Numbered from the stretch's first letter, positions 13,298 through 64,000 are shown. The stretch is DNA of 64,000 nucleotides from Candidatus Binatota bacterium (GCA_024276575.1 JAJRWY010000312.1:1161-65160); one strand, 5' to 3'. Made by a program: numbers and translations. The notes: generated by a model from the letters alone, not told the origin.

Positions 13298-13300
13298 GAA

Positions 13301-38129: not shown

Positions 38130-38161
38130 CGGCAAGCCTGCAACCGGCAAGGCAAGCCTGC
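38130..38161. repeat. Direct repeat GGCAAGCCTGCA x2 (about 8-nt spacing) in the leader of the arsA-like gene
   Basis: Read directly from the sequence, about 70 nt upstream of the predicted start at 38230. Confidence 0.8.
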
Positions 38162-38229
38162 ACACAGTGCGCTGGCCTGCATCCCGGTTGACCCGCGAAT
38201 GGGCAAGAAGTAAGGCCGGGAGTGTTTTG

Positions 38230-40436: not shown

Positions 40437-41641
40437 GTTCCGGATTCTTCCGCCGCTGCGAGATCGACGCCGAGGGATGCCGAAAGAGCCTTGCGGTAGC
40501 ATTGCTCGGCCAGCCGGTCTTGGGAACGCAAACGGTGCAGTTCTCCCTCCAGAGCAAGCTTCAAGGGCGGGTTGAACCCCGGGTCGACTTCGCTTAGGAG
40601 CCGCTCGGCATCTTCCAATCGTCCGTCTTTCAAAGCGTAACCAGCGATGTGGAGTTTGAGGGCTTGGTCTTCGGGGCGGGAGGCTAGAAGCTTGCGATGA
40701 ACTTTCAACAAGCGGCTACGCCGGCCGCTGTCCGCGAGCTGTTGCTCCAACTCTTCGAGTATTCCCAGATGTGCGACCGTTTTTAGGCCTTTCTCCAGGA
40801 CCCGCAATGCGGCACGCCGCGCGCCTCGTTCAGACAGCAGCTTGGCACGAAGGATGATCGCCGGGGCGAAGCCGGGAGCAGATGATATTATGGATTTCAG
40901 CGCGGCTTCCCGCCGCTCGCTTTCCATGTGTTTGGCTACAGAGAACCGGTAGCGTATCAGCCTGTGTTTTTCGTCTTCGTCGTCCGGCTTTAGAGCGGTC
41001 AGACGGTACTGGATCTCCTCGAGTCGTTGCCAGGATCCCGCCGCTTCGAGGACGTCACGCAGTAAAGTTATCAAGGCCGCACTGGCGGGGTAGGTGGCCA
41101 GCGCCCGTTCCAGAGCCACTGCGGCAGCCGCGTAATCGCCTAGGGCATAGCAGACTTCGCCGATAGCGTGCAGCAGAAGGGGATCGTTGCCGAAGTCATC
41201 GATGCCGTTCTCCAACACCTTGCGGGCCTCTTTCAGCGCGCCCTCGCGGCGGTAGCTCTCCGCGTATTCGAGCAGGTCGAGAAGCGTCGACTCGCTTCTC
41301 TTGGTGGCACGGGTGAGCAGAGTGCGTGCACGCAGGTGCTGGCCGGCCAGAGCGAGAGATCGCGATTCGGTCTTCAAGCGGCAGTTTCGCTCGGCGTGGC
41401 GGCGCTCACGATTCATCGACCAGCGCCGTAGCGCCCAGCGGCCTTCTCTGAGCAGGAGCAGCAAGAATACCAGTGCAGCGCCGAGCATGGTGCTGGCTAT
41501 GATGATGGCCCCGAGAGAGAGTTCGTAACGGAAGGCCGGCGGCAGCTTGACTACCGAGGGTTGCGGGTTGAGGTAGACCAAGCTCGCGACGGCGGCGATC
41601 AGGGCGACGATCAGTAGGAAGGTGGCTGTGCGGCGGATCAT
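40421..41641 (-). CDS. Membrane-anchored TPR-repeat protein (N-terminal TM helices plus TPRs; HemY/LapB-like architecture without a rubredoxin domain)
   Basis: Two N-terminal hydrophobic helices followed by multiple TPR-like repeats. Confidence 0.6.
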   Translation of the reverse strand: MIRRTATFLLIVALIAAVASLVYLNPQPSVVKLPPAFRYELSLGAIIIASTMLGAALVFLLLLLREGRWALRRWSMNRERRHAERNCRLKTESRSLALAGQHLRARTLLTRATKRSESTLLDLLEYAESYRREGALKEARKVLENGIDDFGNDPLLLHAIGEVCYALGDYAAAAVALERALATYPASAALITLLRDVLEAAGSWQRLEEIQYRLTALKPDDEDEKHRLIRYRFSVAKHMESERREAALKSIISSAPGFAPAIILRAKLLSERGARRAALRVLEKGLKTVAHLGILEELEQQLADSGRRSRLLKVHRKLLASRPEDQALKLHIAGYALKDGRLEDAERLLSEVDPGFNPPLKLALEGELHRLRSQDRLAEQCYRKALSASLGVDLAAAEESGTHADK

Positions 41642-48904: not shown

Positions 48905-49223
48905 TCCCGCGTTGTTGGTGCTGAGTACCACAGCCGACGAGGAGTCGGCACGGAAACTGTCGTCTGCGTTGGTCGAGGAAGGGCTGGCCGCATGCGTTAC
49001 CCGAGTTGCCGCAGCGTCCGTGTATCGTTGGGAAGGCAAGGTCGAGAGCGGGCCCGAATGTCTACTGCTCATAAAGACACTTGCGAGCAATTGGGAGCGG
49101 CTTGTCGAACGCCTAAAACAGTTGCACGCTTACGAAACCCCGGAGTTGATATCTTTCGAAGCGGCGAAAGTCGAGAGCGCTTATTTTTCTTGGCTGCTCA
49201 GTAGTTGCAGATCTTCTTCGTGA
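48879..49223 (+). CDS. cutA: Divalent-cation tolerance protein CutA
   Basis: LVLSTTADEESARKLSSALVEEGLAACV...YRWEGKVE...HAYETPELISF, covering the CutA1 fold. Overlaps the previous gene's 3' end by 26 nt. Confidence 0.85.
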   Translation: MKVEKPQNDPALLVLSTTADEESARKLSSALVEEGLAACVTRVAAASVYRWEGKVESGPECLLLIKTLASNWERLVERLKQLHAYETPELISFEAAKVESAYFSWLLSSCRSSS

Positions 49224-50008
49224 TCTGCGGTGCCGGCGAGCGCCGATCCCGCGGGTTCTTGTCCCGGGATGAAGCTTTCGCGGACGATCAAAGTGTCGAA
49301 ACCGCGTGATTGTAATTGAGCAGACGCGGCGCGGGCTGCAGCCTTGTTTGCAAAAAGTCCCAAGCGCACCCGGTAGAAACGTGAGAGCAAGTCCGGGTCT
49401 TTTATGTAGAAAGCCGCATCGCCCGCGGTGTCCAGGCCGATTCCATCGATGAATGTTCGCGCGCGTCCGGGAAACTTGAAGGCGCCGATCTGCACCGAGA
49501 AAGCCTGCTCCGGCCAACTCGTAAGGCGTTCGTCGAGTACCTCGAGTTCGACTTCAGCGACTCCCTTTTCGAGTATCCCGAGCCGGATGGCGGCGGCACG
49601 CGAGATGTCAAGTATGCGTTCCCGTACGTAGGGCCCGCGGTCGTTCACGCGAACATCCACGCTGCGCCCGCTTGCTAGGTCCCGCACTCTTATCTTGGTG
49701 TCGAAGGGCAGTGTCCTGTGAGCTGCGGTCATAGCCTCGCGGTCGAAATATTCACCGTTGGCGGTCCGCCGCCCATGAAAGGCATCGCCGTACCAAGAGC
49801 ACAGCCCTTTCTGGGTGAGCGCGGGACGCGGCGGTGGGGGAGTTTGCTCGGCGGCGGCTTTCACGGGGAGGGTGGCTTGGGGAGCCGGCGTGGCCCGCAG
49901 CGGCTCTGCTGCCGGCGGTTTGCCCGCCGAGCAGGCGCTCAGGGTCAAAGCTGCCAGCGCTGCCGCGGTAGCGTTAGGAATGCGCTGCCATGATTCTACC
50001 GACAACAT
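49181..50008 (-). CDS. rlpA: Septal ring lytic transglycosylase RlpA-like lipoprotein (DPBB domain plus C-terminal SPOR domain)
   Basis: Lipoprotein signal LTLSACSAG. DPBB region GLCSWYGDAFHGRRTANGEYFD...DRGPYV. C-terminal SPOR region FSVQIGAFKF...YRVRLGLF. Confidence 0.85.
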   Translation of the reverse strand: MLSVESWQRIPNATAAALAALTLSACSAGKPPAAEPLRATPAPQATLPVKAAAEQTPPPPRPALTQKGLCSWYGDAFHGRRTANGEYFDREAMTAAHRTLPFDTKIRVRDLASGRSVDVRVNDRGPYVRERILDISRAAAIRLGILEKGVAEVELEVLDERLTSWPEQAFSVQIGAFKFPGRARTFIDGIGLDTAGDAAFYIKDPDLLSRFYRVRLGLFANKAAARAASAQLQSRGFDTLIVRESFIPGQEPAGSALAGTADHEEDLQLLSSQEK

Positions 50009-50182
50009 CGCGGTGCGAGTGTGGCTGAAATCTGCGAGATCACGCAAACGCACCCTGTGTAGCTTTCTTTCGCATAGGCACGCGATTGCCCGACCGCAGT
50101 GGCGGGCTAGCCCACGTTTACTAGCGGCGGCTGCTATGCTATCGATGCGAACAAGAGGCAAAAGGAGCAGGCGAGTAAGTAA

Positions 50183-50932
50183 ATGTCAGGTCACTCTAAG
50201 TGGAGTTCCATCAAGCACAAGAAGGCGGCCAACGATGCCAAGCGTGGCAAGCTGTTCACCAAGCTGATCAAGGAACTTACCATCGCGGCGCGATTGGGCG
50301 GTAGTGATGCCGACGCGAACCCCAGGCTGAGAACGGCGATCAATAACGCCCGTGCTCAGAGCATGCCCAACGACAACATCGAGCATGCGATCAAGAAGGG
50401 CGCCGGGGAACTCGAAGGCGCCGACTATGTGGAGGTTACCTACGAAGGTTACGGCGCCGGGGGGATGGCGGTGATGCTCGAGGCCTTGACCGACAACAAG
50501 AATCGCACAGTGGCCGACATCAGGCACCTTTTCAGCAAGCACGGCGGTAATCTAGGGGAGAATAATTGCGTGAGTTGGATGTTCGACCGGGTCGGCCAGA
50601 TTCGCGTTGCTGCCGAGGGAGTGGAGGAAGAGGATGTCTTTGAGATGGCGGTGGAAGCCGGGGCCGACGATGTAGCCGGCGAAGACGATTCCTTCGTGGT
50701 GACTACCGCCGTGGACCAACTTGAAAACGTGCGCTCGGCTCTAGAAGCGGGCGGACTTCGAATCGAGGCCGCCGAGATCGCGTTGGTTCCGCAAAACTTC
50801 GTCAAGCTGTCGGGGGGGGATGCAGCGAGAGCGCTGAAGCTCATCGACGCCCTGGAAGACAACGACGACGTCCAAAGAGTCTCGGCCAATTTCGAAATCG
50901 ACGACGAGGAACTCAAACGGCTTTCCGCTTGA
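50183..50932 (+). CDS. yebC: YebC/PmpR-family probable transcriptional regulatory protein
   Basis: MSGHSKWSSIKHKKAANDAKRGKLFTKLIKE. Confidence 0.92.
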   Translation: MSGHSKWSSIKHKKAANDAKRGKLFTKLIKELTIAARLGGSDADANPRLRTAINNARAQSMPNDNIEHAIKKGAGELEGADYVEVTYEGYGAGGMAVMLEALTDNKNRTVADIRHLFSKHGGNLGENNCVSWMFDRVGQIRVAAEGVEEEDVFEMAVEAGADDVAGEDDSFVVTTAVDQLENVRSALEAGGLRIEAAEIALVPQNFVKLSGGDAARALKLIDALEDNDDVQRVSANFEIDDEELKRLSA

Positions 50933-51080
50933 GCCAGGAATCCTTTGACCAGATTGTCTCAGGCGCCTGCTTGGGGCCGGAGCCGGGCGCGAATCGTTTC
51001 GGTGGGCCGGCCGCTTGTTGGGCGGCCTTCTCGTTTGCGCGGAGTCGGCACGCTGCCGGCCCTCGTTGCCGGATTTCGCC

Positions 51081-51626
51081 ATGCGCATAATGGGCATTGA
51101 TCCGGGTACCATTATTACCGGCTGGGGAGTAGTCGAGGCCCAAGGCTCGCGTCTGACCTGCGTGTCTTCGGGCGTGCTGCGCGCCGGCCATGGTGAGATC
51201 GGTGACCGCCTAGCGCAAATCTATGCAGGGCTGGCTACTTTGATCGCCGAGTACCGGCCCGATGGTGTCGCTTTGGAACGGAACTTTCTGGCCAGGAACG
51301 TGCAGTCTGCTTTTCGTTTGGGTGAGGCCAGGGGGGTGGCGATGGCGGCGGTAGCCGCTGCGGGTTTGCCGCTGAACGAGTATGCCCCGATGAGTGTCAA
51401 GAAAACCGTAGTCGGCTATGGGCGTGCCGACAAATCTCAAGTGCAGGCCGGCGTGGCGAGATTGCTGGCACTCGACAGCTTGCCGCTCGAAGATGAGGCC
51501 GATGCGCTCGGCGTAGCACTTTGTTACGTTCTTAGCGGTGGTTTCGAGAGCAAGGTGCAGCAGGCGCTGGCTGCCGCGCCGGCGCCGCGGCGAAGACCCG
51601 TACGACGTAGACGGGGCGGGGGTTGA
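51081..51626 (+). CDS. ruvC: Crossover junction endodeoxyribonuclease RuvC
   Basis: RIMGIDPGTIITGWGVV (catalytic Asp near the N-terminus), plus the yebC-ruvC-ruvA-ruvB gene order. Confidence 0.9.
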   Translation: MRIMGIDPGTIITGWGVVEAQGSRLTCVSSGVLRAGHGEIGDRLAQIYAGLATLIAEYRPDGVALERNFLARNVQSAFRLGEARGVAMAAVAAAGLPLNEYAPMSVKKTVVGYGRADKSQVQAGVARLLALDSLPLEDEADALGVALCYVLSGGFESKVQQALAAAPAPRRRPVRRRRGGG

Positions 51627-51632: not shown

Positions 51633-52208
51633 ATGATCGCGCGTCTCCGTGGAGAACTGGAGGAGAAGTGCCCTAACGAGGTGCTCATCGACGTTGCCGG
51701 CGTTGGTTATGGTGCTGCGATCTCCCTGAATACTTTCAACAAGCTTCCCGAGTGCGGAGAGGAAGTCTCTTTGTACGTGGTGACGAACTTGCGCGAAAAC
51801 GCGCTGGAATTGTTTGCTTTTGCCGATGGTGCAGAGCGGAGCCTATTTAATGTGTTACGTACAGTATCCGGGATAGGACCTCGATTGGCAATGGCTATTC
51901 TGTCCGGCATCGACAGTGATGAGTTTCCGCGGGTGGTCGCCGAGCGCGACCTTGCGCGCCTGGTGTCAATCTCTGGAGTCGGCCGCAAGACCGCCGAACG
52001 CATCCTCGTAGAGCTTACCGACAAGATGCCGGAGCCGGGTCCGGTCAAAAGCGAGAGCGGCCCGTCGGCCGATGCCGTCGCGGCGCTGTGCTCCTTGGGC
52101 TACAAGAGAGGGGAAGCGCTCAGAGCGGTAAGCGCGGTTCGCGCCGACGGTGGCGACGGCGGCGGGGTCGAGGAGTTGATACGCGGCGCCTTGGCTAGAC
52201 TGTCGTGA
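51633..52208 (+). CDS. ruvA: Holliday junction DNA helicase RuvA
   Basis: MIARLRGELEEK N-terminus, and HhH motifs LRTVSGIGPRLAMAIL and ISGVGRKTAERIL. Confidence 0.92.
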   Translation: MIARLRGELEEKCPNEVLIDVAGVGYGAAISLNTFNKLPECGEEVSLYVVTNLRENALELFAFADGAERSLFNVLRTVSGIGPRLAMAILSGIDSDEFPRVVAERDLARLVSISGVGRKTAERILVELTDKMPEPGPVKSESGPSADAVAALCSLGYKRGEALRAVSAVRADGGDGGGVEELIRGALARLS

Positions 52209-52231: not shown

Positions 52232-53266
52232 ATGCGAAGCAACGAGAATAGAGATGCTCTGAGCGAAGCTTCCGAAACGGATCCGGATTTTTCGCAAGAA
52301 CCGAGCCTTCGGCCGCAAACACTCGACAGTTACATCGGGCAGCGCCGCATCTGCGAGAATCTCGATATCGCGATACGGGCAGCTTCGCGGCGCAACGAGC
52401 CTCTCGACCACCTACTGCTCATCGGGCCGCCTGGTCTCGGCAAGACTTCGCTTGCCCACATCGTCGCGCGTGAGATGGGCGGCCGTGTGCATCAGAGTAG
52501 TGGCCCGGTAATCGAGAAAGCCGGTGATCTGGCGGCCATACTGACCTCGCTGGAGCGCGGCGATGTATTGTTCATCGACGAAATCCACCGCCTTGGTAAA
52601 GCCATAGAAGAGATACTTTACCCGGCGATGGAGGATTTTCGCATCGATTTGGTGATCGGAGAGGGGCCTTCGGCACGCTCGGTGTCCTTGAACTTGGCTA
52701 GGTTCACGCTGGCCGGTGCCACCACGCGCTCCGGTTTGCTCAGTGCTCCCTTGCGCTCGCGCTTCGGCAATACCTTCCGGCTCGATTTCTATGATGAGAA
52801 GGAACTCGCGGCTATCATCACACGCTCGGCGGCTTTGATGGAGGTAGAGATCGAGCAGGACGCCGCCCGCGAAGTGGCCTCGCGTTCGCGCGGCACGCCA
52901 CGCATCGCCAATCGCCTGTTGCGGCGCTTGCGCGACTTTGCGGAAGTTCGCGCCGCCGGGCGTATCGACCTCGAGGTAGCCCGGCAAGCGTTGGAAACCT
53001 TGGGGGTCGACGAAGCGGGCTTCGATACCATGGACCGTCGTTTGCTGTCGGTCATTGCAGAGAATTTCGAGGGTGGCCCGGTCGGGCTCGACACGCTTGC
53101 CGCTGCCGTAGGTGAAGATGCCAGCACCATCGAGGAAGTATACGAGCCCTATCTCATTCGCTGCGGGTATTTGCAGAAGACGCCGCGTGGCAGGGTCGCC
53201 ACGGCGCGCGCTTATGACCATCTGAAGCTCAACTCTCCCGTGCCACAGGAGAGTCTGTTCGAATAG
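52232..53266 (+). CDS. ruvB: Holliday junction DNA helicase RuvB
   Basis: [12 protein letters not shown], Walker [12 protein letters not shown], Walker [10 protein letters not shown], and sensor motifs. Confidence 0.95.
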
Positions 53267-53278: not shown

Positions 53279-55516
53279 TTGTTTATGAGCGGCGCACCTA
53301 GGCCGGACATCTCCATTTCGCGCGAGGAAAGGGCGCGCCGACGCCGTGAGGTTGCGGTGATTCTCGCGGCCGGTCTTGCGGTGGTGTTCTTTGCCGTGTG
53401 GGAAATCGGCCGGCCGGCTGGGCGTGGAGCCACCGGTAACGTTGTCTCCTTCCTACTGGTAAACCTCAACATAGTTCTGCTTCTAGTCGTGGCGTTCCTG
53501 GTTTTGCGAAACATCGTGAAGCTGGTGATTGACCGGCGCCGGCGTGTCCCGGGTAGCCATCTTCGCGGGCGGCTGGTCTTTGCTTTCGTTACCATTGCGC
53601 TATTCCCGGCGGGTTTGATGCTCGTCATTTCGTATCAATTCGTGACCAGCAACATCGATGATTGGCTCGACAGCGAGGTCGAGCAGTCGCTCGAAGGTGC
53701 CTGGGAACTGGCCCATACCTACTATCGGGATTCTGCGGATGCGGCGCTTGCGCATGCGCGGGCCCTGGCTGCGGAGGCTGTGGAGAAGCGGCTGCTGCAG
53801 CCGTCTTCACGGACGAAATTGCGAGAGTTGGTTCTCGAACACCAGCGCGCTTACAAGCTGGGAACCATCCAGATAGTCAACTCCTCAGGCGAACAGGTAC
53901 TGGCTTTGTTCAACGAATCCACTCCTACCGGGATGCCGCTATATCCGGACGCTGAATTGATGTCAGAGAACCTCGAAGGGCGTGAGGCTACCAAAGTAGA
54001 GGCTTACGGCGAAAGTGACGTGATCAGCGGTGCGGTGCCGATACTCGACAGTAAAGGAAAAGTGCTGGGTGCGGTGGTGGTTGATTATTTCGTTGAGCGC
54101 AGTATCCGGCGCTGGAGTGAAGACATACTGAAATCCTTCAGCGAGTTCCGCCAGCTAAAGCTCAGCAAACAGCCTTTCAAGAATCTCTACGCGATTACTC
54201 TTGCTCTGGCCGCGGTCGCGGTAGTGTTCTCGGCTACATGGCTGGGTATTTATATGGCCCGGGGGGTTACCGACCCCATTGGGCGGTTGGCGGAAGCTAC
54301 TGAACGGGTTGCCGGCGGTGACTGGGAGGTTCGGCTCGAAGAAGCAGGCGGTGACGAAGTCGGCATGCTGGTCAGTGCTTTCAACACCATGACTTCACAG
54401 CTCAAGGCAACCCACGATGATCTCGATGAGAGGCGCCGTTACATCGAGAATGTGCTCGGACATATCGAAGCGGGTGTCGTGTCCATCGATGAAGAGGGGC
54501 GCATCGGTACCGTGAACTCAGCCGCAGTGTCGTTGTTGGGCCTCGACGCTGAAGGGCTTGCGGGGCTAGCTGCGGTAGAGACGTTTCAGGAGGCCGGTTA
54601 CTCGGAAATGGCGTCGCTGTTGAAAGATTTGAGTGCCGGAGTCGTAGCTTCCGGCACCCGTATCAACGTCAAGCGGGAACAGGAAGGGCGGACGCTACTG
54701 GTTACTGCGACTGAGTTGAAGCGCGTGAGTGGTGAGCGGGCGGGCTTCGTTCTTTTTGTCGAAAACGTATCACAGATAGTCGAAGTTCAGAGGATGGAGG
54801 CCTGGCGCGAGGTTGCTAGGCGTATCGCCCATGAGATCAAGAATCCACTGACTCCCATCCAACTGTCGGCGCAAAGGCTGGGCAGGCGCTTGCGTTCACG
54901 GCTCGGCGGGGAAGACGCCGAGCTACTGGAGCGCAGCGTGGAAACGATCGTCTCTCAAGTAGACACATTGAAGCAGTTGGTCAACGAGTTCTCGCGCTTT
55001 GCGCAAAAGTCGGAAGGAGACAAGCGCCTACACGATTTGAACCAGTTGGTCGAGGAGACGATCCCTTTGTACAGCGAGTCGCGCCCTGACATCAAAGTGG
55101 AATTCTCCCGTGCCGAAGAGCTTCCGGCACTGATGTTGGACCGGCAGTCGGTAAAGCGCGTTCTGATCAATCTGCTCGATAATGCGGTGGCGGCTCTTTC
55201 GGCGGACGAGGCCGTGCGTGAAAGCGGCGTCGAGCCGCAAATAGAACTTCGGACCTCTTTTGATGAAAGAACCTCGCGCGTGGTTCTCGAAGTCGCGGAC
55301 AACGGCCCAGGAATCGCTGCCAAGGACAAACCGCGGGTATTCGAGCCGTACTTCTCGACCAAGGACGATGGGACCGGCCTCGGCCTGGCTATTGTTGCTT
55401 CGGTGGCTGCCGACCACCAAGCCTTCGTTCGAGTCAGGGACAACCATCCGCGAGGCAGCCGTTTCGTGATAGAATTTCCCATCGTGCCCAAGGAGAGAGA
55501 GGTCCGAGATGCCTGA
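53279..55516 (+). CDS. Sensor histidine kinase, NtrY-like architecture (TM region, HAMP, PAS, HisKA, HATPase_c)
   Basis: Four N-terminal TM helices, a HAMP domain (VAGGDWEVRLEEAGGDEVGMLVSAFNTM), the H-box IAHEIKNPLTPI, N-box LLDNAV, and G-boxes DNGPGI and GTGLGLAIV. Confidence 0.88.
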   Translation: MFMSGAPRPDISISREERARRRREVAVILAAGLAVVFFAVWEIGRPAGRGATGNVVSFLLVNLNIVLLLVVAFLVLRNIVKLVIDRRRRVPGSHLRGRLVFAFVTIALFPAGLMLVISYQFVTSNIDDWLDSEVEQSLEGAWELAHTYYRDSADAALAHARALAAEAVEKRLLQPSSRTKLRELVLEHQRAYKLGTIQIVNSSGEQVLALFNESTPTGMPLYPDAELMSENLEGREATKVEAYGESDVISGAVPILDSKGKVLGAVVVDYFVERSIRRWSEDILKSFSEFRQLKLSKQPFKNLYAITLALAAVAVVFSATWLGIYMARGVTDPIGRLAEATERVAGGDWEVRLEEAGGDEVGMLVSAFNTMTSQLKATHDDLDERRRYIENVLGHIEAGVVSIDEEGRIGTVNSAAVSLLGLDAEGLAGLAAVETFQEAGYSEMASLLKDLSAGVVASGTRINVKREQEGRTLLVTATELKRVSGERAGFVLFVENVSQIVEVQRMEAWREVARRIAHEIKNPLTPIQLSAQRLGRRLRSRLGGEDAELLERSVETIVSQVDTLKQLVNEFSRFAQKSEGDKRLHDLNQLVEETIPLYSESRPDIKVEFSRAEELPALMLDRQSVKRVLINLLDNAVAALSADEAVRESGVEPQIELRTSFDERTSRVVLEVADNGPGIAAKDKPRVFEPYFSTKDDGTGLGLAIVASVAADHQAFVRVRDNHPRGSRFVIEFPIVPKEREVRDA

Positions 55517-56780
55517 GACGATTTTGCTTGTAGATGACGATGCCAAGGTTCGCGAATCGATACGTGGCGTTCTCGGAGATGAAGGCTATGAGGTCGTAAC
55601 TGCATCCAACGGCGTTCAGGCCATGGATGCGGTTGCGGTGCATAACCCCGATCTCATCTTGCTTGATTTGTGGATGCCGGAGATGGATGGCATCGAGTTC
55701 TTACAGCAGGCTGGGTCCGGGGACTCGGCGATTCCGGTGATCGTGATCTCGGGCCACGGCAACGTGGAAACGGCGGTCCGCGCGACCAAGCTTGGAGCCG
55801 TGGATTTCGTCGAGAAGCCGTTTTCCATCGACGGGCTTCTAGCGGCGGTAAACGGAGCCTTGAATCGTTTCTCCCCCGACGAAGGTGCCGCTAGCGTCGT
55901 GGCCGGGCAATTGCCTTCGGCCGGTGGCGCGACGGCTGGTGTCAGCCAGCGCACGTTGGCGCAAAGCGTGGTCGGTGGCGGACTCGGCTTACATAGCGGG
56001 GTGAGGACCGGATTGATCTTGCAGCCGATGCCGCCGGGGAGCGGGATAAGTTTTGCGAGTATAGCGGGCGAGGGCAAAGTGCTCGCACATGTGGACAACG
56101 TGGATTCCACCGGCTACGCGACCACACTGTTCGACAAGGGGACGGTTGCGCGAACGGTAGAACATCTCATGGCGACCCTGCACGCTTATGGGATCACCAA
56201 TCTGCTGGTGAAGATAGAAGGCGAAGTGCCGATTCTAGACGGCTCAGCGGCCGAACTCTGCCAGTTGATAGACTCGGTTGGTGTAGAAGACCAGCCCTCG
56301 GCCATCGCTCCCATAGTGATCGAGGAGGAAGTGCGCATAGACGCCGGTCCGGACGAATTCATCGTGATTCGTCCTCATGACGGTTTCGAAGTAACCTACG
56401 AACTTTCTTATCCGCCGCCGGTGGGGGAACAGAGTTACACATTTTGCTTCGAAGGAGCCGGGTCGTTTCGTTCGCAGATCGCTCCGGCGCGTACCTTCGG
56501 CTTTGTCGAGGAGATCCGCGCGTTGGAAGGAGCGGGGCTAGGCCAGGGAGGACAGCTGAGCAACTTTATACTGATCGGCGAGGGCAGGATCGTCAACACC
56601 GAATTACGCTTCCCCGAGGAACTCGCGCGCCACAAGATCCTTGATATCATGGGAGATTTCTATCTCCTCGGGGCACCGATACGAGGCTCGCTGCACGCGC
56701 GAAAAACCGGGCATTCGCAGAACATCGCGTTGATGCGATTGCTAAGCGAGGGCAGAGGGAGAAGCGCGTCGAGTCGTTGA
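55509..56780 (+). CDS. Response-regulator receiver domain fused to a UDP-3-O-acyl-N-acetylglucosamine deacetylase (LpxC) domain
   Basis: REC region has LLVDDD, the phospho-acceptor Asp in LILLDLWMPEMDG, and VISGHG...EKPF. The LpxC domain starts GGGLGLHSGVRTGLILQP. It carries TVEHLMATL (Glu/His), ARHKILDIMGDF (His/Asp zinc ligands), KTGHSQN (His) and ARTFGF. An 8-nt overlap with the kinase gene indicates translational coupling. Confidence 0.85.
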   Translation: MPETILLVDDDAKVRESIRGVLGDEGYEVVTASNGVQAMDAVAVHNPDLILLDLWMPEMDGIEFLQQAGSGDSAIPVIVISGHGNVETAVRATKLGAVDFVEKPFSIDGLLAAVNGALNRFSPDEGAASVVAGQLPSAGGATAGVSQRTLAQSVVGGGLGLHSGVRTGLILQPMPPGSGISFASIAGEGKVLAHVDNVDSTGYATTLFDKGTVARTVEHLMATLHAYGITNLLVKIEGEVPILDGSAAELCQLIDSVGVEDQPSAIAPIVIEEEVRIDAGPDEFIVIRPHDGFEVTYELSYPPPVGEQSYTFCFEGAGSFRSQIAPARTFGFVEEIRALEGAGLGQGGQLSNFILIGEGRIVNTELRFPEELARHKILDIMGDFYLLGAPIRGSLHARKTGHSQNIALMRLLSEGRGRSASSR

Positions 56781-56802: not shown

Positions 56803-56838
56803 TAGCCGCCCGTCGTGCGGCAAGCCTTAGCTGCATGT

Positions 56839-57639
56839 TTACTTGAGCCCTAGCAGGCGGGGTCTACCGAGGGGGCCGCTTAGACGGTAGCTGCGCCAGC
56901 CCTCTGTGTTCTCGGTGGCTTTGGGAAGCAGGCCGAGCAGGACCCGCGCTTTGGCCGAAGAGTCAGCGGCTCGCACCTTGAAATACAGATCTGTTTGGTA
57001 GCTACCGTCGTCCCTGCGCGAGATGTGGCCGCGGGTCAGATGCCATTGCAGGCCGGCGGCCCTAGCCTCTGCGGATTCGATCTCGAGCTTGCCGTTGCTC
57101 AACCGACCCTTGGCTGAAACCGCATCGAACTCCCATTCGCCGATGGCCATGCCCGCCTTGCTGATGCCGCGCCCGTCCGCGTTGGCGAGCGGCAGGTGCC
57201 CGCTCACGCTGCCATCATTTGCTTCGAGCTCCATACTGCCGTTTCCGTCCGTTACGTCGATTCGTGCGTTGAAGTCGCCGCTTAGAGAAAGAAACCCCAA
57301 GCGAACGCACTTGGCGGGGTCGCCGTCAAGCAAGCGCAGTTGGAAATCGTCGGGGCCCGTAAAGTTACCCTCGATCGACCCTCCGCAGTAATCGGTGTGG
57401 AAACCTCCGAACAGTCCCAGGTATGCCGACTGAAGGTTCAATTCATAACCGTCTTTGGCAAGCCGTAGCCCACCTACTCTATAACCGAAGGGAAACGCCG
57501 GCCGTGCCGAAAGCAGCGATACTTGAACACCGCGTGGTGAAAGGCCCGCACGCAGTACGCTGGCGAGAAGACGCTCGTGCGGAAAGGTGACGGCTGCGAA
57601 AAGCGCCAGCAGGGCCGCGAACACCAGCAAGCGTTTCAT
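56839..57639 (-). CDS. gspN: Type II secretion system protein N-like (GspN)
   Basis: N-terminal signal-anchor MKRLLVFAALLALFAAV. About 260 aa. Sits at the distal end of the gspG-M cluster. Confidence 0.5.
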   Translation of the reverse strand: MKRLLVFAALLALFAAVTFPHERLLASVLRAGLSPRGVQVSLLSARPAFPFGYRVGGLRLAKDGYELNLQSAYLGLFGGFHTDYCGGSIEGNFTGPDDFQLRLLDGDPAKCVRLGFLSLSGDFNARIDVTDGNGSMELEANDGSVSGHLPLANADGRGISKAGMAIGEWEFDAVSAKGRLSNGKLEIESAEARAAGLQWHLTRGHISRRDDGSYQTDLYFKVRAADSSAKARVLLGLLPKATENTEGWRSYRLSGPLGRPRLLGLK

Positions 57640-58193
57640 GTCTTGGACAGCGTTGCGGCCAGCAGTACCAGGTCGAAGCGATCGCGGTCGTCGTAGCGCT
57701 TCTTCATGTCGAGCCTTCGAACGTCGATCGGCCTTTCCGCGTTCTCGATGCGCTTGAGCAGTGCCACGATCTCGGCCAATGACACTTGAGACAGCTTGAT
57801 CTCGACGGTGCTCTCCAAAGTTCCATCCTCGAGTTCCCGGCGGCTAGGATTCATCGACGCTACGCTTTCGGCGCTGACGGCCGCCGCAGTGGCTTTGTCC
57901 ATGAAAGAGAATAGTGAGAAATTCTTCGCGTCTTTCTCCGCTCCGGGCTTGCGCGCGGTGGCACCGGATTGTGCGACTCTGATCTGGCCGGCGAGTATCT
58001 TCATCTCGGCTAGGTCTCTGCGTAAAGAGGCAATCTCGGCCTCTATGCGGCGGCGTCCGGCAGTCAGGGGTTGTATGACCAGCGAGTAGGCTACGACCGC
58101 GGCGACGATAGTGCCGAGTATTGCCAACAAGCGCTGTTCCCGGGGACTGAGACGGGCAAGAATCGCGCCCAGCTTGCGCAGAAGTTCGTTCAT
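57636..58193 (-). CDS. gspM: Type II secretion system protein M
   Basis: Short cytoplasmic N-terminus, a single TM helix (LLAILGTIVAAVVAYSLVIQPL) and a periplasmic domain. Located between gspL and gspN. Confidence 0.7.
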   Translation of the reverse strand: MNELLRKLGAILARLSPREQRLLAILGTIVAAVVAYSLVIQPLTAGRRRIEAEIASLRRDLAEMKILAGQIRVAQSGATARKPGAEKDAKNFSLFSFMDKATAAAVSAESVASMNPSRRELEDGTLESTVEIKLSQVSLAEIVALLKRIENAERPIDVRRLDMKKRYDDRDRFDLVLLAATLSKT

Positions 58194-59587
58194 CCCTTAG
58201 CGCCTCCACGGAGCGAAGCGGAGCCCAAGGGCTCGAGCAGAAGTTGGAATGCGACGCCGTTGCCGCCGGCTGCCGCGTGTACGTCTTTGACCTCCACTTC
58301 TCCGAAGTGGCCGCTGTCGATCAGCGCTTGTTGCAACAGAGTGACGGCTTCGAAGGAGGCCCCGTTTCCGTTGAGCCTTACATTGTTGCCGCTCACGTAG
58401 AATCCGTCGAACTCGACATCCACATCCTTTGGAACGGCTTGAGACATGAGTGCCAGCACCGTTAGGGGTGTTACTGAAGCGCCGCCCGGGGTTGCCCTTG
58501 CGCCGTTGAGTTCGCGCAGCCGCATCTCCATTTTCAGCCGTGCGCCCTTGCCCTGGCGCATTCCGGGCATTGCCTTGGCGAACACGGCCTCGCTTTGTTT
58601 GCGCAGTTCGGCTCTTTCGGAAGCAAGCCGTACATAGCTGACAGTCGAGGCGAGCAGGGCCAGGCCTAGCGCAGTACCCGCCCAGGGCAATAAAGGCCTG
58701 AGTTCGCTCGATAACTCCGACCAGCGGCCGAAGGTTCCCGAACGCCGTGGCGAAAAATCAAGTAGCGGGGAAGCGATGCCGCCGGTGGCGGCGAACAGTA
58801 GCCCGACCGCCGGCGCACAAGTTCTCCAACGAGCGTCGTCCACACCTTCTAGCGGGCAGCGCTCCGGCAGTTGTTCGATGCTGAAGTGATCGCCGTCACG
58901 ATTCAGATTCTGCGCGATGGCTGCCGCACGCGGCCCTCCCAGCACTATACGCCGGGGGCAGGTCTTCATGCTACGCAGCGCGTACAGCACGTTCCTCGAA
59001 AGTAGAGCGTCGTCACAGGCGCCTATAACGCGCAGGTCCAGCAGTGCTTCCCCACCGAGAACTCCGATGGTAGCGCCGTCGACGGATGCGTCGACAATGG
59101 CTACAGTGCCTTTGTCTTCGTAACTGATTGAGCGGCGATAAATCTCCAAGGTTGCACAAGGAGCCCAGACTATGCGGTCCGCGGACAGCCCCCACTCGGA
59201 AAGACGATTCCCGAGCTTCTCGATGGCCGAGTTCGCGGCCATGGCCGCCAGTACCGGACCTCTGCGGCGGGAGTCGGTAAAGTCGTAGGCGGTAGTGGCT
59301 TCATCGAGCGAAAGCGGGACATGCTCCTCGAGCGCCGGTCCGACGGCTTGTCCCAGCCTCCTGCGGTCGCGGAAGGGGAGGTCGAGGAAGCGGTACAGCG
59401 CTGTTTCAGCCGGCAAGGTGGCGATGACACGGTCCCACGAGTCTTTGCAGAACTCTGGTATCGCCGCGTTGCCGTCGAACTCGGCGTCGCTCAGGGAAAG
59501 CAGCTTGAACGAGCCGATGGTGGCTTCGGCTCTGGCTGCGCACAGCCTCCGGCTGCTCAGGTGTAGGGCAAGTATCTTGGTGCTCAC
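58190..59587 (-). CDS. gspL: Type II secretion system protein L
   Basis: GspL-like cytoplasmic actin-like domain, a central TM helix (LLPWAGTALGLALLASTV) and a periplasmic domain. GTG start chosen at 59585-59587. Confidence 0.6.
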   Translation of the reverse strand: MSTKILALHLSSRRLCAARAEATIGSFKLLSLSDAEFDGNAAIPEFCKDSWDRVIATLPAETALYRFLDLPFRDRRRLGQAVGPALEEHVPLSLDEATTAYDFTDSRRRGPVLAAMAANSAIEKLGNRLSEWGLSADRIVWAPCATLEIYRRSISYEDKGTVAIVDASVDGATIGVLGGEALLDLRVIGACDDALLSRNVLYALRSMKTCPRRIVLGGPRAAAIAQNLNRDGDHFSIEQLPERCPLEGVDDARWRTCAPAVGLLFAATGGIASPLLDFSPRRSGTFGRWSELSSELRPLLPWAGTALGLALLASTVSYVRLASERAELRKQSEAVFAKAMPGMRQGKGARLKMEMRLRELNGARATPGGASVTPLTVLALMSQAVPKDVDVEFDGFYVSGNNVRLNGNGASFEAVTLLQQALIDSGHFGEVEVKDVHAAAGGNGVAFQLLLEPLGSASLRGGAKG

Positions 59588-59600
59588 TCCGCTTGCGTTC

Positions 59601-60650
59601 CTATGGAGCCGGCTTTCCGCCGGAGCCGAAAAGGCGCGGCCCGAGATCGGCAAACCGTGCCGGTGCCGAATCGTCGATGTCGGCTATGTTGGGCCCCCGC
59701 CTCGGCAGAAAATAGACTACATGTATTTCGTCCAAATCGCGATAAAGCACGGCCTCCACCGATTGGAATACGCCGTCAACTTCGCCGCTAGACAGCACTC
59801 GGAAGTAACTACTGCTGTATCGAAACATCTTGTCCAGCTTGCTCTTGCTGCGGAATGCGGTCTTCCAACCCTCGAGTTCGAGCAGCATCTGCGAGTTTCG
59901 TATCGGTGTTTGCTCGCGGTAGGCCAGGAGAGTGCCGACCAGCACACCGTCACGCAAGGCCGGGTCCAAGGCTTCGAGCACTGCGGCCGGCGCCGTATTG
60001 GGATTGATCTTGTCCTGGGTTTCCGGAAGCACCGTACACAGTGGGCGCAGGGCACTCAGGCGGTGAGTGTCGAATCCGCGGATGAGGGCGAGTTCGGCGA
60101 AGCTGCGCAAGGCGGAGTTTCTCGGTGGGTAAGGCACGCCGATACTTTGATAGTAGTCGCGCTCGGCGCCCACAGGATCGCTGCTTACCGCGTTGTTGCG
60201 GTCGAGCCAATCCGCCAACGCAGCGGCAAGCTCAGGTTCGAATTCGAGCTGGGCCAGAATCTCCATGAAACGCCGGCCGTTCGTCGAATGGACACCCGAA
60301 CCCAGTAGATTCAGGTTGAAGCGTGCGTTTTCGTCACTGATACGCAGGAAGATGGTGCCGTCCTCGCTCTGTATGGGAGGTAGCGGAGCGGCCCACAGTT
60401 CACTCAGTGCATCCACCGTCGACATGCGAGCGTCGAGCCTCAGTATCTCCGAGGCCAGTTCGATTCCCGATTCGGCCAGTAGCGCGGCACGCCTTGCCTT
60501 GAGCCAGTGGGCGGTGCGACGGTAGTCGACCTGGGCATCGTAGGTGAACTCGATCACCAGCAAGGTCAGTAGCGACATTGCCACCAATGTCATCAGCAGT
60601 GCGATCCCACGCTGGCTCCTGTTCGCGGCCGCCCCGCAGCAGCGTGTCAT
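59601..60650 (-). CDS. gspK: Type II secretion system minor pseudopilin K
   Basis: Prepilin-like N-terminus RGIALLMTLVAMSLLTLLVIEF followed by the large GspK domain. Confidence 0.75.
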   Translation of the reverse strand: MTRCCGAAANRSQRGIALLMTLVAMSLLTLLVIEFTYDAQVDYRRTAHWLKARRAALLAESGIELASEILRLDARMSTVDALSELWAAPLPPIQSEDGTIFLRISDENARFNLNLLGSGVHSTNGRRFMEILAQLEFEPELAAALADWLDRNNAVSSDPVGAERDYYQSIGVPYPPRNSALRSFAELALIRGFDTHRLSALRPLCTVLPETQDKINPNTAPAAVLEALDPALRDGVLVGTLLAYREQTPIRNSQMLLELEGWKTAFRSKSKLDKMFRYSSSYFRVLSSGEVDGVFQSVEAVLYRDLDEIHVVYFLPRRGPNIADIDDSAPARFADLGPRLFGSGGKPAP

Positions 60651-61357
60651 CGCGTTCCCGTTTCCGCAGCCAGCGGCAGCAGTACCGCAGAGGTCAACTC
60701 TACTGCGGGACCTTCTTCCGCCGTTACCGCAACGGTAGTTTCGACCAGGGCCGGTGCAATATCTTTGTCGGCTCCGGGGCCTACCGAATCCCACTGCTCG
60801 AGCCACCGCTTGCGGTTGTAGAAACGAAGACTGAGTTCCGTTACCGAATCATCGAGCAACACACCCGGTGTCTCCTCAAAATCCACTTCTTCCCGCAACG
60901 GAGGCCGGATTTCGTAGCGCCATAGTTGGGTCCGGTCTTGAATTCTATAGACGACGCGGACCTGGTCGCCCCTGGCCGGACCGGCCCAGGACGCCTCGAT
61001 AGGAGCTTCGGGCGAAGGCACACCGCGTGCCGAGAGGCAGGTAAAATCCAGTACAGTGGCGCTATCGGAAGATAGTTCGAAGCGGTCCGGACCTGGGTAG
61101 AAGAATCGTTTGAGATCCCTGTTGTAATCCTGGGTCATGAAAGAAGCCCGCAGGTCTCTTTCGATGATGTCGATCAACGTACGTGCCCTCGAGTAGGCTT
61201 CGCTACGTTGGCCGACGTATCTGCGCGTGGAAACCGTGCGTGTGAAGGTGCCGTAGAGTCCGGCCGCGAGTAGTGCGAAGATCGCCATGGCTACGGTGAG
61301 TTCGAGCAAGGTCATGCCCCGTTGCCGCTGCTCGGCGCTGTAGGCTACGGCAGCCAT
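60647..61357 (-). CDS. gspJ: Type II secretion system minor pseudopilin J
   Basis: Prepilin N-terminus QRQRG|MTLLELTVAMAIFALLAAGLY. The ATG overlaps the gspI stop (ATGA). Confidence 0.75.
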   Translation of the reverse strand: MAAVAYSAEQRQRGMTLLELTVAMAIFALLAAGLYGTFTRTVSTRRYVGQRSEAYSRARTLIDIIERDLRASFMTQDYNRDLKRFFYPGPDRFELSSDSATVLDFTCLSARGVPSPEAPIEASWAGPARGDQVRVVYRIQDRTQLWRYEIRPPLREEVDFEETPGVLLDDSVTELSLRFYNRKRWLEQWDSVGPGADKDIAPALVETTVAVTAEEGPAVELTSAVLLPLAAETGTR

Positions 61358-61767
61358 CAATAGGACTGTTGCCTCATCACAACGGCCATGGTCGCCAGCA
61401 CTTGCGGGTCGCCGCTTCTCGATACACTTACCCGCACGCGCCGTAGCGTTTCGATGGCAGTGGGCATGACTTCGCGTGTCCATACGAAATCTTCACTGCC
61501 GGCTCCTCCGTAGCGAAGGTCCGAGGTCCCGAAGAGATCCTTGTCGCTGCTGAAGCGCCCGTGTTCAATACCGAGTTCCGGATACTCGTCTACTCGCGTC
61601 ATTGTGATCAAATGAGAGGCCAGCAAGCCGGCGCGGGTCAAGTCCAGTGTTTCGGCACTGAGCCTTATGTTGCGAGCGTGCAAGCCCAGCAGGCTTACGA
61701 TTGCGATTCCCAACAGCGCGGTTGCGATCAGAACCTCGAGCAGCGTAAACCCACGGCGATCAGCCAT
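61357..61767 (-). CDS. gspI: Type II secretion system minor pseudopilin I
   Basis: Prepilin N-terminus RRGFTLLEVLIATALLGIAIVSLLGL. Confidence 0.8.
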   Translation of the reverse strand: MADRRGFTLLEVLIATALLGIAIVSLLGLHARNIRLSAETLDLTRAGLLASHLITMTRVDEYPELGIEHGRFSSDKDLFGTSDLRYGGAGSEDFVWTREVMPTAIETLRRVRVSVSRSGDPQVLATMAVVMRQQSY

Positions 61768-62344
61768 TGCCGTTCTCCAGGCCGGAGACTGTCACTTTCC
61801 CGTTCATCATGTTTATCGCGATGTGTTTGCGTTCACCGTTATCGGCCACCACGTCGAAGCTCCACTCGCCGAAGCCGCCTTCGGGTAGGAAGTAGAGATC
61901 GGCCAAGCCGCTATAGCTCGTCCCTTCCGCACCGGCGAAAGAGTCGAATTCGACCCCCGCCGGGAACTGCAGCGGTTCTGAGTATGGGTCCCATACTTGA
62001 CGAAATCCAGGATCCTCGCCGACGCTGGAGTCGCTATCTGCCGGCTCGGCGGAAGCCGTCCGGTCCTGTTGCCCGGTTTGCTCGAAAGGAAGGAATACAC
62101 TTACCGTATAGAAGTCGCGATCGAGATCCGCCCGCAGCCTATAGACCCGGCCGCGAAGCGCCGCCTCGTCGTAGAGATAAGAGATCTGTGCAGCTAGGCG
62201 CCGGGTGGTGGACTTGAGCCGCGAAGAACCGAGTTCCGGAAAACGCGGCGCGACCACCGACAAAAGAATGCCGATTATCACGATGACTAGGGTCACCTCT
62301 ATCAGGGTAAACCCCGCTCGTGGGTTACGGTTACATGCGGCCAT
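61760..62344 (-). CDS. gspH: Type II secretion system pseudopilin H
   Basis: Prepilin N-terminus RAGFTLIEVTLVIVIIGILLSVVAP. Confidence 0.75.
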   Translation of the reverse strand: MAACNRNPRAGFTLIEVTLVIVIIGILLSVVAPRFPELGSSRLKSTTRRLAAQISYLYDEAALRGRVYRLRADLDRDFYTVSVFLPFEQTGQQDRTASAEPADSDSSVGEDPGFRQVWDPYSEPLQFPAGVEFDSFAGAEGTSYSGLADLYFLPEGGFGEWSFDVVADNGERKHIAINMMNGKVTVSGLENGNG

Positions 62345-62403
62345 ACCGGCTTTTTTCGATTCGTGATTGAGCGGCCGCGGGCCTGGCACTGAACTATCCT
62401 TGG

Positions 62404-62859
62404 CTAGAAATCTCGCGAGTCGATATCCGCGTCGAAATCTTCGCCCCCTTCTTCGCCGTCGGCACCGAGACTTCTGAGGACGTAAGTCTTTCCGTCACTT
62501 GCGAACAAGAATTCACCACCCCAGGGGTCGATGGGCACCCGCTCCATATAGCCGCCTTTGCGCCAGTTACGCGGCAGTGGCGCGATTTCCGGTTCGGTCA
62601 CCAAGGCTTCGAGCCCCTGGGCCGTGGTCGGGTATATGCCCGAGTCCAGCTTGTACATTTGCAGGCCTTCTTCCAGCGCGCGTATGTCGGCTTGCGCCTT
62701 TACCACCCTGGCTTCATCGGTCCGGCTTATGAAGCGAGGCGCAGCCAGAGATATAAGGAGTCCGAGAATCAGTACGACCACCAGGATCTCAATGAGCGTG
62801 AAGCCCGCTTCGCCTGTACGGCGGCCAGACCCGAACGGTAGCAACGTCTTTTTGTCCAT
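62404..62859 (-). CDS. gspG: Type II secretion system major pseudopilin G
   Basis: Prepilin N-terminus GEAGFTLIEILVVVLILGLLISLAAPRF, and the T2SS pseudopilin core KAQADIRALEEGLQMYKLDSGIYPTT. Confidence 0.88.
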   Translation of the reverse strand: MDKKTLLPFGSGRRTGEAGFTLIEILVVVLILGLLISLAAPRFISRTDEARVVKAQADIRALEEGLQMYKLDSGIYPTTAQGLEALVTEPEIAPLPRNWRKGGYMERVPIDPWGGEFLFASDGKTYVLRSLGADGEEGGEDFDADIDSRDF

Positions 62860-62918
62860 GCGGCAAAAACCCCGGCGACAGGAAAATCTTGTGTAGCAAA
62901 AAAACACGATGGTAAATC

Positions 62919-64000
62919 CTAACGAACCAATTGGTTCATCTCAAAAACCGGAAGCATGATGGCGAGCAACACAAACAGAACCACTCCAGCCATCAGCACT
63001 ATCATCGCCGGTTCGGCCAGCCTTGCAAGTGTGTCGATCTGCTCCCCGACTTCTTCGTCGAGAGCTTCGGCCGCTTTGGCGAGCATTCCTTCGAGGTCGC
63101 CGCTACGCTCTCCGACCGCCAGCATGTCCACTATCATAGGGTGAAAAAGTGGGTTGCCTTCGAGGTGCTCAGCCAGTGACTCTCCTTCGGATACTGCCGT
63201 TTCTGCGCGTGCGAGCGCGTCATTGACCAGTAGGCTGCCCGAAGCGCTGCGGCTTATGCGTAAGGCGTCTACCAGGGTGAGGCCGCCCGAGACCATAGTG
63301 GATAAGGTTTGCGCGAATCGCGCTACCGCAAGGTCGCGGAACAGGCCACCCGCAACCGGTGTGGCCAGCAACAGGCTTTCGAAGCGGCGGCGCCCTTCGT
63401 CTCTGGACACCGCGACTCGAATTCCCGCCAGCAACGCCAGCAAGCCCAGGAACATGACCGCTCCGTAGTTGCCCACCGCCGAGCCTGCGGCCATCAACAT
63501 GCGCGTGGGTAGCGGCAACTGCTGGTTGGCTTCGGCAAAAACGCGGGTTACCTGTGGAACCACATAGGCGAGCAAAAACAGAACGATGCCACCGCCGACC
63601 AGGGACATGATGGCGGGGTATGTCATTGCCGCCCGTGCGCGCGACTGGAGCCGGGCGCTGGCTTCTGCGTGGTCGGCGATGCGTTCACACACGGAATCGA
63701 GAGCGCCGCTGGCCTCGCCGGCCTCGACCATTGCCACGTAGATTGCCGGGAACACTGACGGATGTCGCGCGAGCCCCGCGGCGAAGCTTTCACCTTCCAG
63801 TAGCCGTACGCGGATGTTGTCGAGTGCGGCTCCCAGGCGCGCTTCCACTCCGCGTTTGCGGATCGAAGCCACAGCCTCGACCAATGGTACACCGGCACGT
63901 AGCAGCGTCGCCAACTGCCGCATTGCCCGCGAGAGAACGCGTGGGGAGATGCGCCTCGAGAACAACGTCAATGGGTGGTTGAAGAGCGATCGATCGCTCT
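62919..64000 (-). CDS. gspF: Type II secretion system inner-membrane platform protein F; the gene's 5' end lies beyond the window edge
   Basis: GspF/PilC-family domain (LATLLRAGVPLVEAV... repeated unit). The reading frame stays open to position 64000 upstream of the first Met. Confidence 0.8.
   Translation of the reverse strand, partial: SDRSLFNHPLTLFSRRISPRVLSRAMRQLATLLRAGVPLVEAVASIRKRGVEARLGAALDNIRVRLLEGESFAAGLARHPSVFPAIYVAMVEAGEASGALDSVCERIADHAEASARLQSRARAAMTYPAIMSLVGGGIVLFLLAYVVPQVTRVFAEANQQLPLPTRMLMAAGSAVGNYGAVMFLGLLALLAGIRVAVSRDEGRRRFESLLLATPVAGGLFRDLAVARFAQTLSTMVSGGLTLVDALRISRSASGSLLVNDALARAETAVSEGESLAEHLEGNPLFHPMIVDMLAVGERSGDLEGMLAKAAEALDEEVGEQIDTLARLAEPAMIVLMAGVVLFVLLAIMLPVFEMNQLVR

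Follow-up and report, generated by a model that had tools for sequence, protein, structure and literature searches.

Can the committed enzyme of lipid A synthesis be wired directly into a two-component system? This question is raised by a 64,000-nucleotide stretch of DNA from a Candidatus Binatota bacterium (GCA_024276575.1 JAJRWY010000312.1:1161-65160), referred to here in its full length as the window, in which an earlier note had described a sensor kinase followed by a response regulator with the deacetylase LpxC as its output domain. LpxC carries out a flux-controlling, usually essential step of lipid A synthesis and is a major antibiotic target, and how its level is set outside the Enterobacteria is largely open. 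Both open reading frames (ORFs) were found on the plus strand exactly as they had been placed: the kinase at 53279-55516 (745 aa) and the regulator at 55509-56780 (423 aa plus stop), with the kinase stop and the regulator start sharing 8 nt (55509-55516, ATGCCTGA). Judged from its sequence, the fusion of a receiver (REC) to LpxC is real and robust, and belongs to a family with a traceable history of domain loss.

The kinase (53279..55516, +) was assigned from its Pfam domains, transmembrane (TM) segments and kinase boxes. The architecture of NtrY, consisting of an N-terminal membrane region, HAMP, PAS, HisKA and HATPase domains, is present in full: NtrY_N matched above its Pfam cutoff (25.7 bits vs 23.2) and is followed in order by Cache-like matches, HAMP (residues 326-376), PAS (389-495), HisKA (509-579) and HATPase_c (621-735), which bears out the description of the protein as NtrY-like. 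There are four TM-like segments, and an extracytoplasmic loop of ~175 aa (residues ~125-300) carries the Cache-like matches. The H, N, G1, F and G2 boxes are all present, the H box reading HEIKNPL with His518 at nt 54830-54832, and by this complete set the protein is predicted to be a competent NtrY-type histidine kinase (HK). The pairing extends beyond the 8-nt overlap in the window, as in 20 of 32 related loci the gene immediately before the fusion encodes a homologous HK. The Nitrospirales loci, too, have an upstream kinase, of the form NtrY_N-HAMP-HisKA-HATPase.

The regulator (55509..56780, +) was analyzed with Pfam, NCBIfam and an AlphaFold2 (AF2) model of the full-length protein, built on an alignment of 71 family members. 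It divides, on the plus strand, into a receiver at residues 5-115 (55521..55853; Pfam Response_reg, E 2e-31), an inter-domain region at residues 116-146 (55854..55946) and a complete LpxC (UDP-3-O-acyl-GlcNAc deacetylase) domain at residues 147-412 (55947..56744; Pfam, TIGR00325 and alignment with Pseudomonas aeruginosa LpxC, PaLpxC), an order of domains that agrees with the reading in the earlier note. The receiver signature of PF00072 (acidic DD, phospho-Asp, Ser/Thr, aromatic, Lys) is complete, with D9/D10, the phospho-acceptor D53 (nt 55665-55667), S81, the aromatic switch F100 and K103. In an alignment of 138 fusion proteins, from which all conservation figures were taken, the canonical residues are near-invariant: D9/D10, S/T81 and K103 occur in all 138 and D53 in 136, with Glu in the other two. 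The closest relatives of the domain are NtrX receivers; its best NCBIfam match is NtrX (128 bits over the REC part), and in the PDB it matches the NtrX receiver of Brucella best (4d6x and 5m7n). After the tail of the last REC helix, which runs to ~118, comes a low-complexity linker of ~27-30 aa (about residues 119-145) that is predicted to be disordered; it had been called Gly/Ala-rich, which holds, with Ser and Pro as further abundant residues.

The LpxC domain covers positions 1-266 of the 268 in Pfam PF03331 (E 2.2e-77, 260.6 bits vs a cutoff of 27) and scores 228.1 bits against the NCBIfam lpxC equivalog TIGR00325, whose cutoff is 187.25. A phmmer alignment with PaLpxC structures (E ~8e-49) spans the whole domain, and the motifs TVEHL, ARTFGF, HKILDxxGD and K(S/T)GH match column by column, as would be expected of the complete LpxC with zinc and catalytic motifs that had been claimed. 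The key residues are E218/H219 (in TVEHL), T329/F330 (ARTFGF), H375/K376/D379/D383 (RHKILDIMGD) and H402 (KTGH). H219, H375, D379 and E218 align with PaLpxC H78, H237, D241 and E77, while H402, T329, K376 and D383 align with H264, T190, K238 and D245. All zinc ligands (His79/His238/Asp242 in E. coli numbering) and catalytic residues (Glu78/His265, with Thr191/Lys239/Asp246) are therefore kept, and each of E218, H219, T329, H375, K376, D379, D383 and H402 occurs in 138 of 138 fusions. The catalytic centre is predicted to be intact, and both domains are, as far as alignment can tell, complete and under strong constraint. The C-terminal tail beyond residue 410 is not conserved, and there is thus no conserved counterpart of the E. 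coli LpxC C-terminus, which serves as an FtsH degron (PMC3333781 ref. 22; PMC12444477).

In the AF2 model, both domains were confidently folded (mean pLDDT 81.9, pTM 0.80), while residues 121-139 had a pLDDT below 50. Foldseek aligned the predicted LpxC part to A. aeolicus LpxC over ~272 columns (TM score 0.88, root-mean-square deviation ~3 A) and to P. aeruginosa LpxC with TM scores of 0.80-0.85, and the protein is thereby predicted to have the two-domain beta-alpha-alpha-beta sandwich fold of LpxC. The LpxC domain modeled in isolation reached a pTM of 0.85 vs 0.80 for the full-length protein. We also noted a strongly conserved segment after ARTFGF (residues 343-367, window 56535-56609), which we take to be the Insert II or acyl-passage region of LpxC and which had low pLDDT in the full-length model. 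This may reflect a shallow alignment or real flexibility. Docking of the receiver on this segment was considered and rejected, as the same dip was seen when the LpxC domain was folded alone, making it uninformative about the receiver.

The same architecture is shared by more than 120 protein clusters. Among the best 120 homolog clusters from a 5.8-billion-protein collection, stemming from NCBI, JGI, ENA and Logan assemblies, all contain both PF03331 and PF00072, with lengths of 417-447 aa and identities of 57-70%. When one genome per GTDB species was scanned, the full-length fusion was found as a continuous ORF in ~30 species-representative genomes, all of them metagenome-assembled genomes (MAGs), and no cultured isolate with the fusion was seen among these ~30 species-level genomes. 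The carriers are labelled Candidatus Binatia, 'Deltaproteobacteria', Nitrospirales, Thermodesulfobacteriota, Aminicenantes, Candidatus Entotheonella and Bacterium HR30, and one short form (BBM88387.1) comes from a Spirochaetota genome. The receiver face formed by alpha4-beta5-alpha5 (residues 81-110) is 83-88% conserved, the column identity of linker residues 121-140 is ~0.25, and across 160 short forms the linker measures 24-114 aa (median 30) and is rich in Ala, Gly, Arg, Ser and Pro. Two loci (L016 and L031) are labelled 'uncultured Clostridia', yet their sequences group with those of Aminicenantes.

Where the fusion came from was indicated by an exhaustive search of 1.84 billion representatives at 50% identity with the LpxC domain alone as the query. 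Its nearest relatives are nearly all N-terminally extended, at ~400-460 aa or ~590-736 aa, and ordinary stand-alone LpxCs (270-320 aa) first appear at about 45% identity or less. By Pfam, the longer proteins show the layouts REC-Sigma54_activat-AAA_lid_14-HTH_8-LpxC (P0137, P0139), REC-AAA+-lid-LpxC (P0123, P0124, P0128, P0133, P0141, P0153, L026) and REC-HTH_8-LpxC (P0143, P0131). Long-form fusions of 680-750 aa were located at L026:8681-10867, L081:10001-12220, L082:10001-12169 and L084:10001-12193, and at least 120 long-form clusters were found, from Tectomicrobia/Entotheonellaceae, Nitrospinae and Thermodesulfobacteriota. In the annotation by JGI, they independently bear the name 'two-component system nitrogen regulation response regulator NtrX'. 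The long form P0139 spans positions 4-452 of 452 of the NCBIfam NtrX model with 339 bits, below the cutoff of 600; NtrX is nevertheless its best match, ahead of AtoC and NtrC, and it also scores above the lpxC cutoff. In ~25 long forms, neither the GAFTGA motif nor the Walker B Asp-Glu pair was kept in any, while Walker A was mostly intact, which indicates that the AAA+ module is NtrX-like or degenerate and not a working sigma-54 activator.

Short forms arise from these long forms, as judged from three observations. In each of the two domains that they have in common with P0139, the short forms P0349 (453 aa) and P0400 (465 aa) show 73-77% identity to it, and P0349 corresponds to P0139 minus exactly residues 125-419, at 75-77% identity. 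Over ~21 kb, the locus of Entotheonella DD2 (L022, short) is collinear with that of Entotheonellaceae PAL068K (L081, long), in the order lptE ... mutS, fusion gene, lolA, rseP, nusA ... pnp, and their sole offset is ~900 bp within the fusion gene. In a neighbor-joining tree of LpxC domains, short forms are neighbours of long ones in several positions; this tree is rough, and it was used only alongside the synteny and pairwise evidence and not for rooting. The deletion of AAA+ from inside the gene is thus directly visible. With the receiver nearest to those of NtrX, the long-to-short series identifies the window pair as NtrY plus a reduced NtrX::LpxC. The full NtrX architecture is absent from the window regulator, which matches only positions 3-120 of 452 (128 bits vs a cutoff of 600), and we regard the protein as NtrX-derived, on the strength of these profile matches, but not an NtrX. 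The earlier note had missed this main context, namely that there is a large NtrX::LpxC family of which the protein is a reduced member, and that NtrYX had already been linked to lpxC expression.

Some side observations concern the members of this family. A few stand-alone LpxCs of ~290 aa fall inside the fusion clade (P0164, P0170, P0140, P0151); P0164 fills a 925-bp contig, P0151 looks frameshifted, and P0170, on a 35.8-kb contig, may truly have lost its REC secondarily. One contig that was assigned to the bin of a 'Promethearchaeota archaeon' (L025, whole 3163-bp contig) carries the same two genes as L026:8037-10867 of a Thermodesulfobacteriota MAG, with ORFs of 215 aa and 728 aa whose first 40 residues are identical in each, and is most likely a bacterial contig mis-binned into an archaeal MAG. 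One long-form locus (L082) has the order mutS, DUF4390, NtrY-type kinase, REC-AAA-LpxC, with the DUF4390 gene (L082:7131-7715) directly before the kinase and a LapA_dom protein (4075-4389) just upstream of mutS.

Previous work connects NtrYX and related systems to lpxC at the level of transcription. Deletion of ntrYX in R. sphaeroides raised lpxC mRNA 8.8-fold and increased lipopolysaccharide (LPS) (PMC7240162), and according to the 2025 JBC review 'The regulation of lipid A biosynthesis', transcription of lpxC is inhibited by NtrYX both in R. sphaeroides and in C. crescentus (PMC12444477). In D. vulgaris, lpxC is the single mapped target of the NtrC-family regulator DVU2934, and in S. fumaroxidans lpxC adjoins an operon orthologous to DVU2931/DVU2934 (PMC3333781). 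A regulator fused to its own target gene therefore appears to be a natural origin for the fusion family. The controls of LpxC known so far act through FtsH/LapB/YejM, Lon or transcription and involve no fused signalling domain, and the words 'fusion' and 'receiver' are absent from the 2025 review (PMC12444477). As far as the searchable literature reaches, we found no published account of a REC-LpxC fusion, in line with the uncharacterised status claimed for it, yet the fusion is visible, unremarked, in public annotations.

We consider phospho-control of LpxC activity or stability to be the best explanation of this architecture, and hold it with modest confidence, a little above even. The sequence evidence shows the architecture, the integrity of both catalytic centres, the kinase pairing and the descent from NtrX::LpxC: in this derived NtrY/NtrX system, the AAA+ and DNA-binding output has gone and an intact LpxC stands in its place, and with the helix-turn-helix (HTH) lost, LpxC is the sole remaining output. 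The periplasmic loop of ~175 aa would allow the membrane kinase to sense a signal from outside the cytoplasm or from the membrane; the kinase would then phosphorylate receiver Asp53, and the phosphorylation state of the receiver would set the amount of LpxC activity in the cell. The flexible linker of ~30 aa makes rigid allostery through the linker unlikely. The likeliest routes would be CheB-like docking that occludes the active-site face, or switching between monomer and dimer by way of alpha4-beta5-alpha5; a change in stability, with phospho-dependent turnover, would be a less likely route. The full-length pTM of 0.80 is higher than expected for two freely tethered domains, and, set against 0.85 for LpxC alone, gives a weak hint of defined domain packing in the model. 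As for direction, inhibition is a reasonable guess by analogy with the alphaproteobacterial NtrYX, which lowers lpxC expression.

Several observations weigh against this explanation. Communication between the two domains is something that we infer, and the linker, being disordered, poorly conserved and 24-114 aa long, argues against rigid allosteric transmission. Pairing with an HK is not universal: in the Entotheonella loci, the fusion is an orphan without a kinase, with mutS upstream and lolA and rseP downstream, and in the Aminicenantes loci, a ClpB-like AAA+ gene overlaps the fusion start from upstream in place of the HK. A fusion-clade surface patch on LpxC was looked for, and only seven signature positions were obtained, mostly in core helices, which define no docking surface. 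The effect of NtrX on lpxC in R. sphaeroides is indirect, with no NtrX site at lpxC (PMC7240162).

The alternative that survives best is a fusion that couples expression and nothing else. Here the receiver would serve NtrY signalling, as a phosphate sink or towards other targets, LpxC would be a constitutive housekeeping enzyme, and the fusion would be a relic of a former regulator-target relation without post-translational control of the enzyme. The long, variable and poorly conserved linker and the lack of a fusion-specific surface patch on LpxC both speak for it. A regulator and its neighbouring target can fuse by simple stop-codon loss, and the long forms keep a complete NtrX-like body that could act apart from LpxC. 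However, AAA+ and HTH disappeared repeatedly, whereas REC with an intact phospho-site was kept throughout. If the receiver were idle, its frequent loss would be expected, yet stand-alone LpxCs are rare in the clade, and the pTM of 0.80 hints at packing between the domains. We regard an uncoupled fusion as unlikely.

A second alternative, rather unlikely in our judgment, is that an ordinary lpxC does the bulk synthesis and that REC-LpxC is a conditional second deacetylase, switched on under particular envelope conditions and possibly acting on a related UDP-acyl-sugar. The 64 kb visible here leave room for a stand-alone lpxC in the rest of this genome; the LpxCs of the fusion clade share no more than ~45% identity with typical stand-alone ones and carry a few clade-specific residues. 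Against an accessory role, the domain scores above the lpxC equivalog cutoff. No second lpxC was found in the 64-kb window or within +/-10 kb of the 32 related loci when the LpxC domain and two stand-alone LpxCs were used as tblastn queries. The neighbourhoods are of a housekeeping kind and conserved across phyla (ruvCAB; mutS, lolA, rseP, nusA), and lpxD lies two genes away in one Aminicenantes locus; together, the neighbourhoods and the nearby lpxD favour a primary role for the fusion LpxC. Whether this lpxC is the sole one or an extra one is the most important question among these alternatives.

A third alternative, which we regard as quite improbable, reverses the flow of information. LpxC would act as a sensor, with occupancy by substrate, product or acyl chain altering the phosphorylation or dephosphorylation of REC, or the DNA binding of long forms, and the system would report lipid A precursor status. 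The long forms, which join LpxC to HTH_8 and a degenerate AAA+ (no GAFTGA, no Walker B Glu), lend this some support, and the layout recalls the enzyme-plus-regulator proteins PutA and BirA. The window protein, however, has no DNA-binding or other output, so that only the kinase would be left to control, and the HK has a large periplasmic sensor domain of its own. All catalytic residues, not just the ligand-binding ones, are invariant, which points to selection for turnover. Finally, the concern raised with the original description, that a frameshift or the assembly had artificially joined two genes, is refuted for practical purposes by the continuous ORF in more than 120 clusters (NCBI, JGI, ENA, Logan) and ~30 species genomes, with frame and linker kept.

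The genes around the pair were annotated with Pfam. Upstream on the plus strand lie a yebC-like gene (50183-50932), ruvC (51015-51626), ruvA (51633-52208) and ruvB (52232-53266), which ends 13 nt before the kinase start, and co-transcription of this block with the kinase is possible. Of the 32 related loci, 13 have this block ahead of the HK/REC-LpxC pair. Promoter and terminator scans around the operon stayed at background level, with no convincing one between the genes. A hairpin at 56814..56837 (+), in the 58-nt gap between the regulator stop and the convergent gspN stop, is a weak candidate for a bidirectional terminator; as the number of terminator-like hits in the region is no higher than in shuffles, it is a positional suggestion only. 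The convergent genes form a type II secretion operon (gspF, G, J, K, L, M, N; 56839-63971, -), whose last gene matched the Leptospira-type GspN model TIGR04411 with 62.5 bits vs a cutoff of 50.

Around the fusions of other genomes, the Aminicenantes-type loci differ most clearly. The ClpB-like protein is ~1000 aa long (AAA_2, ClpB_D2-small; L016:6972-10001, L017:7041-10001, also L018, L027 and L031), and a TPR Ser/Thr kinase gene lies divergently upstream in loci of this type (TPR, tetratricopeptide repeat). The ClpB-like neighbour could hint at unfoldase or proteolytic control of LpxC, and so would fit the turnover route, perhaps by coincidence. In L016, lpxD and a GT1 glycosyltransferase gene (12629-13675 and 13744-14808, both -) lie two to three genes downstream of REC-LpxC, and this lpxD is the sole lipid A gene seen near any fusion.

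A scan of ~42 ORFs of the window revealed no further lipid A gene. Envelope genes were observed elsewhere in the window, at 5-1909 (class A penicillin-binding protein), 10486-12465 (SLT lytic transglycosylase with four LysM repeats), 18878-20302 (BepA-like M48-TPR protease, 195 bits, below the cutoff of 570) and 49181-50161 (RlpA-like DPBB-SPOR protein). Two adjacent genes for ArsA/Get3-like P-loop ATPases (37789-39198 and 39300-40436, +) have no role that is obvious from context. A membrane TPR protein (40421-41641, -) had been described as having LapB/HemY-like architecture. Two N-terminal TM segments and TPR repeats are indeed present, with generic Pfam TPR matches only. Its identity as LapB was rejected, as there is no C-terminal Cys-rich rubredoxin motif and no NCBIfam LapB match; the best NCBIfam match is a HemY-type TPR model at 40.7 bits vs a cutoff of 142. 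The gene closes an obg-proB-proA-nadD-rsfS cluster and, without LapB features, gives no support for a LapB connection.

The regulation of LpxC is described in the 2025 review in terms of proteolysis by FtsH/LapB or Lon and of indirect transcriptional effects (PMC12444477). If our explanation is true, a receiver fused to LpxC would be a third mode of control that is direct, fast and reversible, and the fusion would offer a tractable one-protein system for studying how signals from the envelope are passed on to lipid A synthesis. The NtrX::LpxC series also argues, independently and on genomic grounds, for NtrYX being at root a regulator of the envelope and LPS, which would make the confusing pleiotropy of ntrYX mutants easier to explain. 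More tentatively, and with less confidence than we give to phospho-control, the NtrX-receiver fusion may be the only LpxC in a number of phyla that have been little studied (Binatia-like Desulfobacterota, Tectomicrobia, Nitrospinota/Nitrospirota, Aminicenantes and some Spirochaetota). The fusion would then also show the NtrYX-lpxC link known from alphaproteobacteria to be ancient and specific, and hard-wired by fusion. The weight of these points is tempered by the domain coupling, which we infer, by hosts that are uncultured and by the presence of the architecture in public annotations.

How does the pair compare with known systems? The LpxC of E. coli, P. aeruginosa and A. aeolicus resembles the window domain in full length, in zinc ligands, in the catalytic Glu/His/Thr/Lys/Asp and in predicted fold. 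The bifunctional LpxC-FabZ (PRK13188) is another natural LpxC fusion, although there the partner, FabZ, is C-terminal and metabolic, not signalling. A LpxC/FabZ identity for the window protein was rejected, as NF009667 matched with 181 bits vs a cutoff of 465, over the LpxC half only and with no FabZ part. The NtrY/NtrX systems of Brucella, R. sphaeroides and Caulobacter are alike in HK architecture, in REC and in the link to the envelope and lpxC. They differ in the output, since the AAA+ and HTH_8 of NtrX are gone from the window regulator and LpxC is left as its sole output. Canonical NtrX is a transcription factor, and we know of no report of one fused to an enzyme. NtrYX has been studied in alphaproteobacteria, whereas the hosts of the fusion are uncultured Binatia-like bacteria, Tectomicrobia, Nitrospirota and Aminicenantes.

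The D. vulgaris pair DVU2931/DVU2934 is likewise an NtrC-family two-component system dedicated to lpxC; there, control is transcriptional and the genes are separate, whereas in the window regulator and enzyme form one polypeptide. CheB, PleD/WspR and RpfG share with the fusion the plan of a REC, a flexible linker and a catalytic domain. They offer precedents for a mechanism: in CheB, occlusion of the active site is relieved, and PleD and WspR undergo phospho-induced oligomerisation. Their outputs are signalling enzymes, whereas that of the fusion is a lipid A biosynthetic enzyme. Response regulators with enzymatic outputs are thus already known, and what is new here is an output enzyme that commits the cell to making lipid A.

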